A DNA stretch of 64,000 nt from Promethearchaeota archaeon (lineage in GTDB: Archaea; Asgardarchaeota; Lokiarchaeia; Sigyniarchaeales; SOKP01). The DNA lies in assembly GCA_048939995.1 (NCBI GenBank), contig JBHLOY010000001.1:398449-462448 (forward strand), written 5' to 3'. Of the stretch, positions 26,783 through 33,064 are shown one piece after another; position 1 is the stretch's first letter; each line of letters opens with the position of its first letter. The notes beneath the pieces were generated by a model that made no database searches, was not told the origin of the DNA, and saw only the letters and a list, made by a program, of their open reading frames with translations. Made by a program: the position numbers and the translations under genes.

Positions 26783-27736
26783 CTATTGATTTATTTTAAA
26801 CAGGTTAAATCCATTAGAAACATGGTCAATTATATCTGATCTTTTGTTAAAAGTCACTTTTAGACCATATACTGATCCTCGGAAATAACTTTCTGCCAGG
26901 ACTAGTATGACACTGCAATGTTCATCAGTTTTTTTAATAATCGGTATTTGTGCCTCCCATTTCGTAAAAAACACATAATTTTTTGCGATATTTATTGCTT
27001 TTTTATAATACTTCATATCTTCAGATGCATTTGATAACTGAGTTTCAAAAATTTTACTATTTTTTTTTGAAAATTGAATTTTCTTTCTTAATCTAAAAAT
27101 GCATAAGTTATCTGAAGAAATTTTTTCATAAATAAAATATCTAAATGGGAATAGACCAGGAATGTAAAGCGCATTAGAAGGCAATTTTGCTTGAATCCAA
27201 ATTTTAGAAATAATGCGATACATGAAATAGAGTAAATAAAATCCAAAAAAGTATTGAAATAGATATGAAAAGAATAGTTGTGGAAAAAAGAAGTATAATA
27301 TTGAATAAAATATTATTACTGTACCTGAGATAAGAGCTAAAACAAAATTAATTGCCCTATCTATAAAAAATCTATACCTTCTTTTCGAGAAGGGATAAAA
27401 AATAGGAATTTTGGACGCTGTCATTAAATCAAGTGAAATATGAAGACTGTAAAAAAGGAATCCGACAACCCAGACAATAACAAAATTTTCATTGGTAATA
27501 AGAGTAAATATACTTGCTGTAAAAAAAGAAAAGATGATTGCAGTAAAATAAGAATGGGATAATCCTTTGTGTGAGAGAAAATTTGATTTTTTAATTAATT
27601 GTAATGGTTCCAAGACAATATCAAAATCAGCAATGATAGCCATAATTATAGCATAGAGAACGATACTAAATGGTAATGAGTTAAGCGTGTAGATACTTAT
27701 AAATATTGCCATTAAAAAGTGTGTGAAAAAATCCAT
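26783..27736 (-). CDS. Membrane metal-dependent hydrolase (YdjM-like)
   Basis: MDFFTH, DFD, HKGLSHS, H..LD, YPF. Confidence 0.8.
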   Translation of the reverse strand: MDFFTHFLMAIFISIYTLNSLPFSIVLYAIIMAIIADFDIVLEPLQLIKKSNFLSHKGLSHSYFTAIIFSFFTASIFTLITNENFVIVWVVGFLFYSLHISLDLMTASKIPIFYPFSKRRYRFFIDRAINFVLALISGTVIIFYSILYFFFPQLFFSYLFQYFFGFYLLYFMYRIISKIWIQAKLPSNALYIPGLFPFRYFIYEKISSDNLCIFRLRKKIQFSKKNSKIFETQLSNASEDMKYYKKAINIAKNYVFFTKWEAQIPIIKKTDEHCSVILVLAESYFRGSVYGLKVTFNKRSDIIDHVSNGFNLFKINQ

Positions 27737-27841: not shown

Positions 27842-27885
27842 TTTGTCAATCTCTTACTATAATTTTCTAAAAGATTTCATTCAAA
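27842..27885 (-). promoter_or_regulatory. SECIS-like kink-turn hairpin (eukaryote/Loki-type)
   Basis: Minus strand 5'-UUUG AAU GAA AUCUUUUA GAAAAUUAUAG UAAGAGAU UGA CAAA-3': 4-bp stem, 3-nt bulge, tandem G.A/A.G pairs, 8-bp stem and an unpaired apical AAAA. Confidence 0.7.
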
Positions 27886-27888
27886 TTA

Positions 27889-28356
27889 TTATAATTGTTT
27901 GTTAAAATAATGGATAAAATATTTATTCTCTTTACCATATTTTTGGCGCAGTATTGTTTTAAGTGACCCCATATCTAATCGTTCTTTTACTTTTTCTCAT
28001 CAACATCCTACATCTGGTTGTAATTGAATAAAGCTATTAGGATAGATATTGAATTCAATATTTTCCCTAATGGGGTTAAATTTACGTAAAATTCCATCCT
28101 CATCAGGTGCGTAGGCAAATACTCCGACGTCCTCATATATTAAACCTTCCTCTAAATTTACAAATAGTTGAAGATAACTATGAATGTAACTCTCATATAG
28201 TGGAAATATTGAATTCATAGAATCTTCCATTTCAATTTTATCAACCAATGCTAAAGCTTGGATAAATGTTGCGTTATCATTGAGTTCAAGAGAATACTTC
28301 TTACCCTGTTGGAGACCTTTAATTGGTATACTAATTTCAAATTCTACCTTTTTAAT
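27889..28356 (-). CDS. Putative selenoprotein with beta-grasp/MoaD-like fold and Gly-Cys-(Sec)-(Sec) motif; ends at 28000 if UGA is not recoded
   Basis: AGGTGA then ATT (28356) extends the track ORF by 36 codons. Reads ...PDVGC-TGA-TGA-EKVKERLDMGSLKTILRQKYGKENKYFIHYFNKQL-TAA, followed by the SECIS-like hairpin. Confidence 0.6.
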
Positions 28357-28378
28357 CTTTAATTCACCTATCGTATGA

Positions 28379-28648
28379 TTATATTAAGCCTTTTTCTTTA
28401 AGGAGAATGGGTAAATCTTTTTTCAGTAGAAATGCAGCAGTATATTTTCTTTCATTATCTACTACAATTGAGTTTCCATGTAAATTAAGGCTTCTAGCTT
28501 CTTCAGAATTAAGATTTTTTGTGCTATAATCAATATGTTTAATGTAAGGAGTTAAAACAATGAATACACGGTTCATAAACTTATCCCATTCGCAAGCACA
28601 GCTATCTAATGGCACATAAATGTCCACTTTTAATTTGCTATTTTCCAT
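28379..28648 (-). CDS. Small thioredoxin-fold/ArsD-like protein with CxC
   Basis: KVDIYVPLDSCAC resembles the position of the Cys cluster after the first beta strand in ArsD metallochaperones; also supported by gene context. Confidence 0.45.
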   Translation of the reverse strand: MENSKLKVDIYVPLDSCACEWDKFMNRVFIVLTPYIKHIDYSTKNLNSEEARSLNLHGNSIVVDNERKYTAAFLLKKDLPILLKEKGLI

Positions 28649-28659
28649 GGTTTAGATCC

Positions 28660-28965
28660 TTAAGAACAATTACATGATTGGTTTGAATTTTTTACTCTAC
28701 TTCTCACATTCCATAAACATCCACAACCAGGCTGTTCTTGCATAATGATAGCTTGGGTGGGGCAATTTCTCTTACAGGCACTGCACTCAGTACAGAGATT
28801 TTCATTAGTTATTTCATACTTTCCATTTTCATTTGGTTTTGGTAATCCAAAAGGGCAAATCTCTCCACACAACCCACAACCATTACAGATATCTTTATTA
28901 ATAAAGATACGCAGATTCTTCATGATTTGTGTGATATTTAAAGACTTAAAATCTATTTCAGTCAA
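28660..28965 (-). CDS. hgcB: HgcB-like 2x[4Fe-4S] ferredoxin
   Basis: CNGCGLCGEICP and CTECSACKRNCP, then GCGC and C-terminal SCNCS. Directly downstream of the hgcA-like gene. GGAGGTG favours a TTG start at 28965. Confidence 0.7.
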   Translation of the reverse strand: MTEIDFKSLNITQIMKNLRIFINKDICNGCGLCGEICPFGLPKPNENGKYEITNENLCTECSACKRNCPTQAIIMQEQPGCGCLWNVRSRVKNSNQSCNCS

Positions 28966-29010
28966 ACTTAACACCTCCTAATCTACAATATTATTAATTT
29001 TTTATATTAT

Positions 29011-30681
29011 TTAAACAAATATAACTCCAATTGTTAATGAAATCAAGCCTATTATTAAAAAAACCTTATTTAATAAGCTAAATAGGGGATATTCATTTTC
29101 AATTTTTCTTGGGCTTGTTGCCATTGTATAACCACTGGAAGACATAGTGGAAAAAAAAGCAATCCAAAAGAAAAATCCAATATTTATGAGGACATAAAGA
29201 ATTGAACTATGAAGCCACCACGTTAGTAATCCCAAAATACTAATATTAATGAATCCATAGAATATTCCCTTAAATACAAATTTTTGGGTAAAATCTGAAA
29301 GAGGAAACAATAAAAATATAATTAGATTTGTAATTATGACCCAAAGGCAGATTTCCCCAATCCACCAAACCTTATCAAAGTTTGTAAAAATTGCTAGTCC
29401 TAAGAATAGGAAGAATAAAGCGATTATAGGTAAAAGAAACACTTTACGGAAGAGAAATGTAGTGTGGGTTATTACTGCACGCATGCGATGAGACAATTTA
29501 AATTTAGCGAGCTTCATTTTATCTGATTTTTTAGACGGCTTTTCTTTTAAATAGTCTGGTATAAACTTGGACCATACTGGGCCATATTTAACCTTAAATG
29601 GAAATTTTTCGGAACTTTTAGGTAGTTCTGGAATAGCTATTCCGCCAGCAGAAAGTTGAGGAAGCAGAAGTGTTTTTTTATTAGAAATATATTGAATTCC
29701 AGAAGTTTCTACAGCTTCGAGGAGTTGGGAATTACCAAAATTATTTCCGCGAGCCGCACACCATACATTAATCCCATTAGAATCGACACATAATACCCAT
29801 GCGTTGATCTTTTTCAAATCTCGCATAACTTTAATATATGTATAATCATAATTTGCAGTAACAATAATAGGGGAATCTTTATCGGGAGTCCCAGATTCAT
29901 AAATCCCTGGCTCAATAGGAACATGATCCACTTGACCGGTGAAGGTGCAACGGTATATCCTTAATTGAGATTTTATTCCTTTAAATTTTCTCGGTTTAGG
30001 ACGATAATAACCAGGTTCATTTTTTTGATTGACAATTACTTTTTGAAGCTCTAATGCTTGGATAGAGCCATGTTTCCACTTTTTTTGAGTTTTAATTTTG
30101 AATCCGATTGATTCTAGATAATTAAAGAACCATTTAACACGGAAAGTATTTTGTAATCGAAGTCTTCTAATTTTTTTCTTGTACCACCATCTTTTAATAT
30201 TAAAGATTAATCTCCAAAATCCTGAAGGCACAAATTCAGCTCCAATTATTAAACTTCCTTCTGGTTTTAGGACTTTCCATGCATTTCGAAGGAAAATTTG
30301 CTGTTCAAATGGACGTAATTCTGATAACATAAAAGTACTTACTACCACATCCTTAGAAGAATCTTCCATATGTATATCTGAGAAAGTCCCAATTTGATAA
30401 GTTAGTTTCAAATTTTCTTCTTGAGGATAATTCTGCATTGCAAAAGTAATCATCTTAAAATTTTTGTCAATTGCAATAACATTATTACCCTTTAATGCCA
30501 TTTTAGCAGCGAGTACACCTGTACCACATCCAATCTCTAAAACATCTGAAGCATTTACACGATCAAGAATCCATTTCTGGACTTCTTTATTAACTCCCTT
30601 TGTAAGAGTGGTAAATTTTGAATCATATGTATCTGGTTCCTGTTCCAATTTCCTCATATATACGACAGCCATTAAATACAC
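29011..30681 (-). CDS. hgcA: Fusion: SAM methyltransferase + HgcA-like corrinoid domain + transmembrane domain
   Basis: VLEIGCGTG; PGIY..G.PD..SPIIVTANY, DSNGINVWCAARG (cap helix), LLLPQLSAGG, YGPV; about 5 C-terminal TM helices with GYT..TS. Confidence 0.75.
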   Translation of the reverse strand: MYLMAVVYMRKLEQEPDTYDSKFTTLTKGVNKEVQKWILDRVNASDVLEIGCGTGVLAAKMALKGNNVIAIDKNFKMITFAMQNYPQEENLKLTYQIGTFSDIHMEDSSKDVVVSTFMLSELRPFEQQIFLRNAWKVLKPEGSLIIGAEFVPSGFWRLIFNIKRWWYKKKIRRLRLQNTFRVKWFFNYLESIGFKIKTQKKWKHGSIQALELQKVIVNQKNEPGYYRPKPRKFKGIKSQLRIYRCTFTGQVDHVPIEPGIYESGTPDKDSPIIVTANYDYTYIKVMRDLKKINAWVLCVDSNGINVWCAARGNNFGNSQLLEAVETSGIQYISNKKTLLLPQLSAGGIAIPELPKSSEKFPFKVKYGPVWSKFIPDYLKEKPSKKSDKMKLAKFKLSHRMRAVITHTTFLFRKVFLLPIIALFFLFLGLAIFTNFDKVWWIGEICLWVIITNLIIFLLFPLSDFTQKFVFKGIFYGFINISILGLLTWWLHSSILYVLINIGFFFWIAFFSTMSSSGYTMATSPRKIENEYPLFSLLNKVFLIIGLISLTIGVIFV

Positions 30682-30712: not shown

Positions 30713-31771
30713 CTATTGAGATTTCCAAAAACCTCGTTTTTTTAGATACCTGCCTAAATAAACTATTGAAAGCATTATGGGGACTTCCCAAAATAATCCC
30801 ATAGTAGTCCCCAATGCTGCAATTGAACCAACACCATAGATTGCGATAGCAGTAGCGATTGCAATTTCAAAATGACTTGAAGATCCAATAATTACAGTTA
30901 TTACAGCCTCTTTGTATTTTAATTTAAAAAATTTGGTAATTAGGATATTGTATCCAACAACAATAGCAAAACCAACCAGAAGTGGTATTGAAACCAATAA
31001 TAACAAATCTGGATTAAGTACTAGAACTTGTCCATTTAAAGAAAAAAGCACAGCTAGAGTAGTCAATAGAGCTAAAATAGAAATTTTTCCTACTAGAGGG
31101 CGATAAATATTATTAAACCAATCTATTCCCTTGGAAGAAATAATAAGTCTTTTAGATATAATACCAAGTAATAAAGGAAGCCCAATAAAAATTAATGTTG
31201 AAAATAATAAAAGGATCCAATTTATTGGGATGCTTTGAATACCTGTTAATAACGTTACCATTGGAGCATAACCAAATATTATAGTTATGGTGTTTAAACT
31301 AGTATTAATTACATTCTGTTCTTGATTTCCTCGTGCCATCCAGCCCCATACAAGAACCATCGCTGTACACGGTGAACTAGAGAGTAATATAATAGCGACT
31401 GAAAGTTGTTGATTTCCAGCTAAAAACAAATTAACCATCAGTAACCCTATAAAAGGAGCAACTAACCAATTAGAGATTAATGTTAAAATGATAGGTTTAG
31501 GATTTCTTCCCAATTTCTTTAATTCTGAGGCCTGAATATTTAACATTGCAGGATACATCATCAAAAACAAACAAATCCCAATAGGAACTGAAATTTCCCC
31601 TATTTTTATAGCATCAATTGCTTCACTGATGCCTGGAAAAAATTGCGATAAAAGAATTCCAATAAGAATACATAAAGCAACCCATAGGGGAAGAAATTTC
31701 TCAAAAAAACCAATATCTTTCCCTTTCTCTTTCGAAACTTGTTCTATTCGATTTAATCTTTCTTTTTGCAT
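30713..31771 (-). CDS. acr3: Acr3 family arsenite efflux transporter
   Basis: FFEKFLPLWVALC, LMMYP, NW, PCTAMVLVW, FEIAIATA, EVPIML. Confidence 0.9.
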   Translation of the reverse strand: MQKERLNRIEQVSKEKGKDIGFFEKFLPLWVALCILIGILLSQFFPGISEAIDAIKIGEISVPIGICLFLMMYPAMLNIQASELKKLGRNPKPIILTLISNWLVAPFIGLLMVNLFLAGNQQLSVAIILLSSSPCTAMVLVWGWMARGNQEQNVINTSLNTITIIFGYAPMVTLLTGIQSIPINWILLLFSTLIFIGLPLLLGIISKRLIISSKGIDWFNNIYRPLVGKISILALLTTLAVLFSLNGQVLVLNPDLLLLVSIPLLVGFAIVVGYNILITKFFKLKYKEAVITVIIGSSSHFEIAIATAIAIYGVGSIAALGTTMGLFWEVPIMLSIVYLGRYLKKRGFWKSQ

Positions 31772-31774
31772 AAT

Positions 31775-32530
31775 TTATTGAATAACCTCTTCTAAAATAA
31801 GTGTTGAATCTTTATTCCTTCTTTCATACTCTCTTCTAATGTTTTTAATAAAAGATTTTAAATTATTTGTAAGTTTATTGAAACTTTCCAAGGAGATACC
31901 ATTAAATATTGAGACTAAATGGATAATACCAGCCACTTCCTTATCGCATGTATGACCAAAACGCGGAGCACGGCATTCATAACAAACATTTAAAGCGAAA
32001 TTTTGAAGATTATTTTCCTCAAACTCCTTGTTCAATAGAAAATCTGCTCCTGCCTTTGAAGAACCACATAATGATGATCTTTCTATATCAATTCTATTGA
32101 TAACTCCACTATTATCTATACTGAAATGATAAATTGGACGACCAAAATATGTAGTAAATAAATCAACTTCAGAGATACCCGTATTATTCTCTAATGAACA
32201 CATTGTAGGAGCATAAATAACATTAGGATTCACCTTTCTGGCTTGTAAATATAAACCTATTCCCGGAAGCACTCCTAAAATCACTGGTTTTTGGAGTTCA
32301 ACAAGTTGAGTTATAATGTCAGGATGACGAACATATGAAATGTAAAGGTCACATTCAGGGATGTTTAGATCCAGCTCATCATCTAACATAATATTCGATG
32401 GAATCTCTGGTACAAGTATCCATTTAGTTTCAAACTTTTTTTTTATGTTTTCAAATGCTCTATCCCCATATTTCCCATCAGAAACTACTCCAACCGTTAA
32501 TTTTTCTTTTTTTTCCATTTTATATACCAT
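31775..32530 (-). CDS. DUF166 family protein
   Basis: YGDRA, HPD, MCSL, FGRP, RSSLCGS, YECRA, IH; recognised from memory of the family. Confidence 0.6.
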   Translation of the reverse strand: MVYKMEKKEKLTVGVVSDGKYGDRAFENIKKKFETKWILVPEIPSNIMLDDELDLNIPECDLYISYVRHPDIITQLVELQKPVILGVLPGIGLYLQARKVNPNVIYAPTMCSLENNTGISEVDLFTTYFGRPIYHFSIDNSGVINRIDIERSSLCGSSKAGADFLLNKEFEENNLQNFALNVCYECRAPRFGHTCDKEVAGIIHLVSIFNGISLESFNKLTNNLKSFIKNIRREYERRNKDSTLILEEVIQ

Positions 32531-32659: not shown

Positions 32660-33064
32660 TTGGTGGTTTTTATCAAGGTTAATCGGAGGACAACAATCAA
32701 AGAAATGCTATGTAGTTGCGAGGAAGGTTCTGATAGTGAAAAGTATTTTAAAAATTTAGAAAAATTAGGAGAAAACCTAAAATTAGATGACAAGATCAAT
32801 TCTACATTAATATTTTTAAATGCTTTAGGAAATAAAGAACGATTAACTATTATTAACGCCTTGAAAGAAAAAGATCGTTGTGTATGTGAATTAGAAGTTA
32901 TTTTAGACAAATCTCAACCTTCCATATCTCATCATCTAAGAGAATTAGAAAAAGCTAACTTGATTCGAGGGTGGAAAAAAGGGAAATTTACATATTATAG
33001 TCTTTTAGAAAATAATTTTAAGGAGCAATTAGAAAATTTCTATCATGAATATAGGCTTGGATAA
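32660..33064 (+). CDS. arsR: ArsR/SmtB family repressor, divergent from the acr3 operon (start uncertain)
   Basis: ALGNKERL.I...CVCEL...SQPSISHHL..L...GKFTYYSL; additional N-terminal CSC. Confidence 0.9.
   Translation: MVVFIKVNRRTTIKEMLCSCEEGSDSEKYFKNLEKLGENLKLDDKINSTLIFLNALGNKERLTIINALKEKDRCVCELEVILDKSQPSISHHLRELEKANLIRGWKKGKFTYYSLLENNFKEQLENFYHEYRLG

Follow-up and report, generated by a model that had tools for sequence, protein, structure and literature searches.

The window analysed here is a stretch of 64,000 nucleotides from the genome of a Lokiarchaeia archaeon, and the gene under study occupies positions 27889..28356 of its reverse strand. This gene would encode a protein of 155 amino acids if two adjacent in-frame TGA codons are both read as selenocysteine (Sec). 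The putative start is an ATT codon at 28356, preceded by an SD-like AGGTGA at 28369-28364; an ATG lies near the same position in some orthologues, and an ATA codon at 28371 is a possible alternative. An ATT start after an SD-like GGTGA or GGAG was apparent in many members of the family, and gene callers therefore shorten the N-terminus as well (the ORF called in the window begins at 28248). At the other end, public annotation of the family proteins is truncated, stopping at Gly-Cys.

The predicted product comprises a beta-grasp domain resembling SAMP, MoaD and CysO (residues 1-116; 28009..28356, reverse strand), the motif Gly117-Cys118-Sec119-Sec120 encoded by GGA TGT TGA TGA (27997..28008, reverse strand, with the TGA codons at 28002-28000 and 27999-27997), and a helical tail of 35 residues (27892..27996, reverse strand) which contains the tryptic peptide LDMGSLK. 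The reading frame ends at a TAA (27891-27889), and a SECIS element of the Loki type (eukaryote-like, type I) follows at 27846..27880 of the same strand. The first-pass annotation, made from the sequence of the window, had described this same succession of GGA TGT TGA TGA, 35 sense codons, TAA and SECIS-like hairpin, and every part of it was found in place. It had also put the chance of so long an open run at about 5%, which was too low: 283 of the 2905 real stops in the genome (9.7%) are followed by at least 35 open codons. Such a run is thus not rare and is a weak argument alone, and the case therefore rests on comparison.

Upstream of the selenoprotein gene and on the same strand lie a gene for a small CxC protein, thioredoxin-like by eye and with no Pfam or NCBIfam match (28379..28648); an HgcB-like dicluster 4Fe-4S ferredoxin (28660..28974; Pfam Fer4; NF040864 at 54.6 bits against a cut-off of 99) that lacks the terminal Cys-Cys and ends in SCNCS; a CpaM-like SAM methyltransferase fused to an HgcA-like corrinoid/membrane domain (29011..30681; NF043040 at 147.6 bits against 180 and NF040863 at 163 against 275), in which the motif NVWCAARGN is a variant of the HgcA cap-helix motif; an arsenite efflux transporter of the Acr3 family (30713..31771; TIGR00832, E 2e-80, 270 bits against a cut-off of 283); and a DUF166 protein (31775..32530; PF02593). 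A divergent ArsR/SmtB regulator with a CVC motif (32660..33064, forward strand; PF01022, NF033788) precedes this set. On the downstream side, 110 nt past the SECIS, a YdjM-family membrane protein is encoded on the same strand (26783..27736; PF04307; a neighbour in 19 of 60 wide loci) and may be the gene that actually closes the unit; accordingly, the earlier statement that the selenoprotein gene ends an operon is doubtful as to its last position, whereas the arsenic-gene context held.

A comparison of 60 wide loci, most of them from one family of related genomes, identified the CxC gene as the commonest neighbour (32), followed by ArsR (28), Acr3 (25) and the HgcA-like fusion (22). All three motif subfamilies described below occupy the ars slot, often with ArsC-type genes inserted directly after it, and in minimal loci (L130, L131) only the divergent ArsR gene and the selenoprotein gene or genes are present. 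A second Loki family (L152/L194) shows the order Acr3-ArsR-gene, and in three related Bathyarchaeia loci (L187-L189) a single-Cys homologue is found among ArsR, ArsP, ArsC, Acr3, thioredoxin-like and DGC genes. The ars-operon context was therefore seen in Loki families f1 and f4 and in these Bathyarchaeia loci, that is, in about three lineages, and was absent at the loci of families f2, f5, f6 and f7. The f2 loci have a CDF efflux gene upstream and those of f6 a ferredoxin and an aldehyde:ferredoxin oxidoreductase downstream, while the loci of MK-D1 and L. ossiferum have neither ars genes nor other telling neighbours nearby. The context had been called an arsenic/HgcAB-like operon; the first half of that name stands, as ArsR, Acr3, ArsP and ArsC recur, but the HgcA- and HgcB-like genes do not reach the NCBIfam cut-offs, and many loci lack them. 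Because these genes miss the cut-offs, arsenic is a better lead than mercury. The methyltransferase fusion, with its variant motif and its place in an ArsR/Acr3 operon at 22 of 60 loci, is a candidate corrinoid-dependent arsenic or metal methylase. A scan of the region with sigma-70 and terminator models, which do not suit archaea, gave nothing above chance, and the sole RNA-seq assembly holding the full region spans it evenly in a 38-kb contig and so gives no readout of expression, level or strand.

The argument for translation through the doublet came from its homologues. A search with the 118-residue ORF retrieved homologues in 39 of 61 relatives, and each locus that reaches the site has TGA-TGA and a similar tail. 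The doublet was in frame in 91 of 91 distinct TGA-bearing homologues (these copies come from related genomes), none of which ends at Gly-Cys with TAA or TAG; it is kept across six families, down to about 26-30% identity, and every full-length genome match of the family has two or three TGA codons. The true stops lie 32-50 codons beyond the doublet and are varied (TAA in 57 copies, TGA in 28 and TAG in 6). Changes in the tail are biased to synonymous ones: in 25 copies of the window's subfamily, dN/dS was 0.14 in the tail and 0.10 before the doublet, against 0.96 and 1.53 for the two alternative frames, and the tail shows the usual dip at third codon positions. Its residues Arg126, Gly141 and Tyr150 are invariant. 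In addition, a profile of the stop-free homologues aligned with the selenoprotein family through the tail (99.7%, 133 columns). As the tail beyond it is under selection and is homologous to that of stop-free relatives, the second UGA would be read through too, and the suggestion that one or both UGAs encode Sec can be narrowed to both. Conservation of the TGA positions was thus complete among the TGA-bearing homologues; the stop-free homologues have Cys at position 118 and I, V, S or T at positions 119-120.

Since TGA is the ordinary stop of 376 out of 2380 long ORFs of the same genome, the doublet points to recoding and not to reassignment. Three further explanations were discarded: genetic codes 4/25, as TGA ends those 376 long ORFs; a frameshift or overlapping ORF, the remaining frames being closed and neutral; and a selected product ending as Gly-Cys-Sec-stop, which read-through of the second UGA rules out.

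The SECIS begins 8 nt past the TAA and has the layout ATGA-N-8 bp stem-11 nt loop-stem-N-GA, with ATGA at 27880-27877, a stem formed by 27875-27868 and 27856-27849, an A-rich loop with AAA near its 5' side, and GA at 27847-27846. A strict genome-wide scan for this pattern gave eight matches, vs 0-2 in codon-block shuffles: five behind hdrA, vhuD and prxL, two behind the gene and its paralogue on contig C16, and one behind a small ORF. The element has the same geometry as those behind hdrA, vhuD and prxL in this genome, which is that of the published lokiSECIS (PMC4989117, PMC11227280). It is retained in 81 of the 91 TGA-bearing loci, 107-143 nt after the first UGA; raw pattern matches in the controls numbered 0/6 for stop-free homologues, 1/91 for antisense windows and 10/91 for upstream windows. 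Ten loci lack it: in four the gene is the leading one of a tandem pair and directly adjoins another member of the family, in three the element is slightly variant, and at three distant loci (L058, L141, L151) there is no clear match to the pattern. In 64 aligned copies all eight stem pairs showed compensatory changes and 98.4% of the stem cells were paired, with 0/500 for shuffles and about 50% for slid controls; this percentage is partly built in because the copies were picked by the same pattern, a reservation that does not extend to the ATGA and AAA, which are invariant and keep a fixed spacing behind a stop that varies. Folded by free energy on its own, the hairpin was unremarkable (z -1.1), as expected since non-canonical GA pairs are not scored, and an Rfam search of the region found no SECIS; support for the element thus comes from conservation and covariation and not from folding energy.

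The genome also holds the machinery for Sec: a SelD that itself contains Sec, SepSecS, EFSec-like and PSTK-like proteins whose best matches are just under or below the model cut-offs, and a tRNA with a UCA anticodon that lies between EFSec and SepSecS; it was located by hand, and ARAGORN, the Rfam tRNA-Sec model and a simple pattern all missed it. This tRNA-Sec (G000:C23, ~113475-113631, forward strand) seemingly has two introns, one on the D-arm side and one in the T-loop; the published Loki tRNA-Sec has a single intron, in the T-loop. The region downstream of the Sec-containing selD (L033; G000:C11:4162-5025, reverse strand) departs from the strict pattern for a type I SECIS. For selD genes, type II elements are reported in most cases.

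Taken together, the conserved doublet, the selected tail and the covarying SECIS indicate that both UGAs of this Lokiarchaeia gene are very probably read as Sec, making it a selenoprotein gene (probability about 0.93). The opposite reading, in which a plain double stop ends the protein at Gly-Cys, or Sec is followed by a stop, and the tail is untranslated or a separate micro-ORF, finds some backing in the normal use of TGA as a stop in this genome, in the database entries ending in GC and in the MoaD-like proteins that end at the same position; it is nevertheless highly improbable, as none of the 91 homologues, up to ~70% diverged, has TAA or TAG at either position, the conservation of the tail is codon-position-biased and extends to stop-free relatives, the SECIS covaries, and a separate tail ORF would have no start codon in the window. 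Truncated by-product forms may arise under low Se.

The family is near-core in its class. A profile search found it in 78 of 90 genomes of the Lokiarchaeia vs 0 of 210 other Asgard genomes, many of which carry SepSecS. It is present in the cultured MK-D1 (P. syntrophicum; G050:C1:805853-806329, forward strand) and Ca. L. ossiferum B35 (G055:C1:3628649-3629119, reverse strand), and the named database homologues are from Promethearchaeota/Lokiarchaeota MAGs. At positions 117-120, aligned in a gapless register, the 91 copies are of the types G-C-U-U (62), D/E-U-U-A (23) and U-G-U-U (6). The Cys-Sec-Sec triad of the first-pass annotation is thus the commonest form, but its Cys is dispensable, being replaced in the 23/91 copies with D/E-U-U and the 6/91 with U-G-U-U; from these sequences, the predicted constant of the family is the adjacent Sec-Sec, and the Cys is not essential. 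In a tree rooted at midpoint only, D-U-U and U-G-U-U each formed a supported clade among the C-U-U members of family f1. If the gapless register is correct, Sec and Cys exchange at position 118, with Sec in the HAD subfamily and Cys elsewhere.

The stop-free homologues are mostly from Bathyarchaeia (10 of 301 genomes of that class) and keep one Cys, in the forms C-I-T, C-I-S and C-V-S; positions 119-120 hold I, V, S or T. A Lokiarchaeia-like stop-free copy (L074:1274-1747; C-V-S, no SECIS) falls within family f2 in the tree, which points to Sec having been lost secondarily. This copy lies directly upstream of a NifU-domain gene and appears to have lost both Sec without replacement by Cys. A scan of 185,579 genomes for Cys-Cys relatives, with one pattern only, gave none that was confirmed.

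Several variants deserve mention. The paralogue in the same genome (L002/L072; G000:C16:9342-9800, forward strand) has the motif H-A-D-U-U, is followed by a SECIS of its own (C16:9821) and lies in no ars context. A three-Sec subfamily (L130-L135; for example L131:5768-6230) has S-S/A-U-G-U-U and usually forms a tandem pair with a C-U-U copy. As the leading gene of the L134 pair lacks its own SECIS, one element may serve five UGAs in two genes. A third in-frame TGA occurs in the tail of L010:1495-1968 (G017) at the usual Gly (LDI-U-NFK), where it could encode an additional Sec, end the protein early or result from a sequencing error, and L136 and L137 also have a third TGA inside the match. Separately, a 36-residue ORF with two CxxC motifs (L197:1519-1632; G000:C17, ~215637-215750, forward strand) ends in F-K-TGA-TAA/TAG in 6/6 orthologues (L197, L198-L202), each with a SECIS-like stem of varying sequence some 35-45 nt later, a short UGA-SECIS distance; judging from these features, it is a candidate second new selenoprotein with a C-terminal Sec.

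An AlphaFold model with Cys for Sec (pLDDT 91) shows the beta-grasp domain, the motif and two helices; the motif comes directly behind the final beta-strand, where a short helix begins. The structural matches were SAMP1 (Z 7.8, also the top Foldseek match), CysO (Z 7.6), the transcobalamin beta domain (Z 7.6) and MoaD; for a model, Z values of this size are a sign of a common fold and not of function. Searches of Pfam, NCBIfam and PDB sequences, including the ThiS/MoaD profile PF02597, gave no match for the selenoprotein, and hhalign against a shallow 8-sequence alignment of the genus's own MoaD/SAMP proteins returned a probability of 0.5-0.6%. Six ordinary ThiS/MoaD matches are present in the genome. 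The beta-grasp fold usually serves as a carrier or binding scaffold.

We infer the function of the protein from its gene neighbourhood alone. In the proposed mechanism, the ribosome would insert Sec at each of the two UGAs under the direction of the 3' SECIS ~116 nt downstream together with EFSec and tRNA-Sec, and translation would end at the TAA. In the product, the beta-grasp domain would lead into a Cys-Sec-Sec cluster, located where SAMP/MoaD end in Gly-Gly, and then into the helical tail. As part of an ArsR-controlled arsenic response, its two or three adjacent thiol/selenol groups would capture As(III) or similar species such as Sb(III) or methylarsenite, and the metalloid would be held, or passed to Acr3/ArsP efflux or to the methyltransferase-corrinoid protein in the manner of ArsD, while the upstream CxC protein may keep the Cys-Sec-Sec site reduced. 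We consider such capture of a soft metalloid by vicinal thiol/selenol groups, with hand-off or holding, somewhat better supported than not, with As(III) putatively favoured over Hg. Counting against it, the single Cys of the stop-free homologues cannot form a three-ligand site, and three consecutive ligands may misfit one As(III) geometrically; a strict three-ligand model leaves the single-Cys Bathyarchaeia forms and the non-ars contexts unexplained.

The main rival to metalloid capture is a redox catalyst, in which a vicinal selenenylsulfide or diselenide would cycle with the CxC or thioredoxin-like neighbours and re-reduce ArsC or the methyltransferase, or repair arsenic-damaged thiols. Mammalian thioredoxin reductase has a Gly-Cys-Sec-Gly tail. 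Oxidoreductases make up the majority of selenoproteins (PMC13188914), the gene closest by is a CxC or Trx-like one both in Loki (32/60) and in Bathyarchaeia, a single Cys suffices in the stop-free homologues, and the algal PDI_e has GUGUU in a thioredoxin fold (PMC7539508), with the same UGUU as the third subfamily. We nevertheless regard this role as unlikely, because a beta-grasp scaffold of the carrier or binding kind is not a catalytic redox fold, and the gain of a third Sec and the reshuffling of motifs would fit ligand clustering better than a fixed catalytic pair.

Less probable still is a sulfur or selenium carrier similar to SAMP, MoaD or CysO, with a persulfide or perselenide on the Cys/Sec cluster for cofactor synthesis (tungsten pterin, Fe-S) and later recruitment to ars operons. 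The closest folds (SAMP1, CysO, MoaD), the placement of the motif at the Gly-Gly position, and distant loci beside aldehyde:ferredoxin oxidoreductase (L053, L055), NifU (L074) and a molybdate/tungstate-type ABC transporter (L098) would agree with it. Nonetheless, a conserved tail of 32-50 residues takes the place of a free C-terminal Gly, Gly117 is not invariant, several members having another residue there, the comparison of profiles with the genus's own MoaD/SAMP proteins showed no similarity (0.5%), the genome already has its six ordinary ThiS/MoaD matches, and no E1 or MoaE was recognised among the neighbours. Weakest of the functional alternatives, and quite improbable, is a chaperone dedicated to the HgcAB-like pair and handling Hg(II)/methylmercury or cobalamin. 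In its favour, the gene shares an operon with the methyltransferase-HgcA-like gene in 22/60 loci, beta domains that bind cobalamin are among the fold matches (Z 7.1-7.6), and a bacterium is described in which ArsR links hgcAB to ars genes (10.1101/2022.10.17.512643). Against it, the HgcA- and HgcB-like genes are below cut-offs, no HgcA-like gene was found in 38/60 wide loci (some cut by contig ends) or in the Bathyarchaeia loci read, and a Z below 8 may mean a common fold only.

Returning to metalloid capture, a bolder reading, to which we give a little under an even chance, is that of a near-core Lokiarchaeia family with the first back-to-back Sec found in prokaryotes, in which the Gly-Gly end of a ubiquitin-type fold would be replaced by a cluster of two to three selenols (C-U-U, U-U or U-G-U-U), acting as a selenium-based arsenic chaperone or sink, and in which one short archaeal SECIS could drive up to five Sec insertions in two tandem genes. 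The finding would add a common family (78/90 genomes of its class) to an Asgard selenoproteome of seven known families, and implies that the archaeal EFSec/lokiSECIS system, without SBP2, decodes consecutive UGAs, providing a natural test substrate for the competition between release factor and Sec-tRNA in the closest relatives of eukaryotes. It would also put Sec into a protein of beta-grasp fold, and it suggests that selenium and arsenic are directly linked in sediment archaea. As the gene is present in both cultured Lokiarchaeia, existing or new proteomes can test the reading of Sec.

With respect to known systems, the 2016 list contains five Loki selenoprotein families (PMC4989117) and that of 2024 seven Asgard families (PMC11227280), while a 2026 review counts 119 prokaryotic families in a table that has neither an adjacent UU motif nor a beta-grasp family (PMC13188914). 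The present family is absent from all three inventories, in agreement with the initial remark that no such selenoprotein family had been described, and no description of it turned up in the largely open-access literature covered on tandem UGA codons, on new selenoproteins of Asgard archaea and on their hgcA/arsenic loci. Homology-based surveys may have missed it because Sec119-120 is not aligned with Cys in the stop-free homologues. The only Sec-Sec precedent found was the algal PDI_e (GUGUU; PMC7539508), with which the family shares consecutive Sec-Sec and, in one subfamily, U-G-U-U; PDI_e is, however, eukaryotic and thioredoxin-fold, and the likeness would be convergent.

With SAMP1, MoaD, CysO and Urm1 the protein shares the beta-grasp topology (Z 6.3-7.8 over ~84 aligned residues, rmsd 3.1-3.5) and the reactive motif at the terminal Gly-Gly position, but differs from them in having no terminal Gly-Gly, a 35-residue helical tail, domain insertions and no profile similarity. 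ArsD, an As(III) metallochaperone with the ligands Cys12, Cys13 and Cys18 (PMC12415280), is likewise a small protein of ars operons with vicinal soft ligands; binding by the selenoprotein is putative, its ligands include Sec instead of Cys, and no ArsA was recognised among its neighbours. The fold of ArsD also differs from the beta-grasp of the selenoprotein. The stop-free Bathyarchaeia homologues (for example UCH02879.1 and MEM2920734.1, hypothetical proteins) are homologous over the full length, tail included, and keep Cys118, differing in that they have no UGA, no SECIS and one Cys only. Finally, the gene shares with those of the lokiSECIS selenoproteins of Lokiarchaeia (SelD, HdrA, VhuD/FrhD, VhuU/FrhA, PrxL) the same 3' AUGA...GA SECIS with its A-rich loop and the same machinery, and, as in hdrA-vhuD, one SECIS can serve a tandem pair (L101, L134, L139, L140); it is set apart from the seven listed Lokiarchaeia/Asgard families by being non-homologous to them, by its beta-grasp fold and by its two adjacent UGAs.
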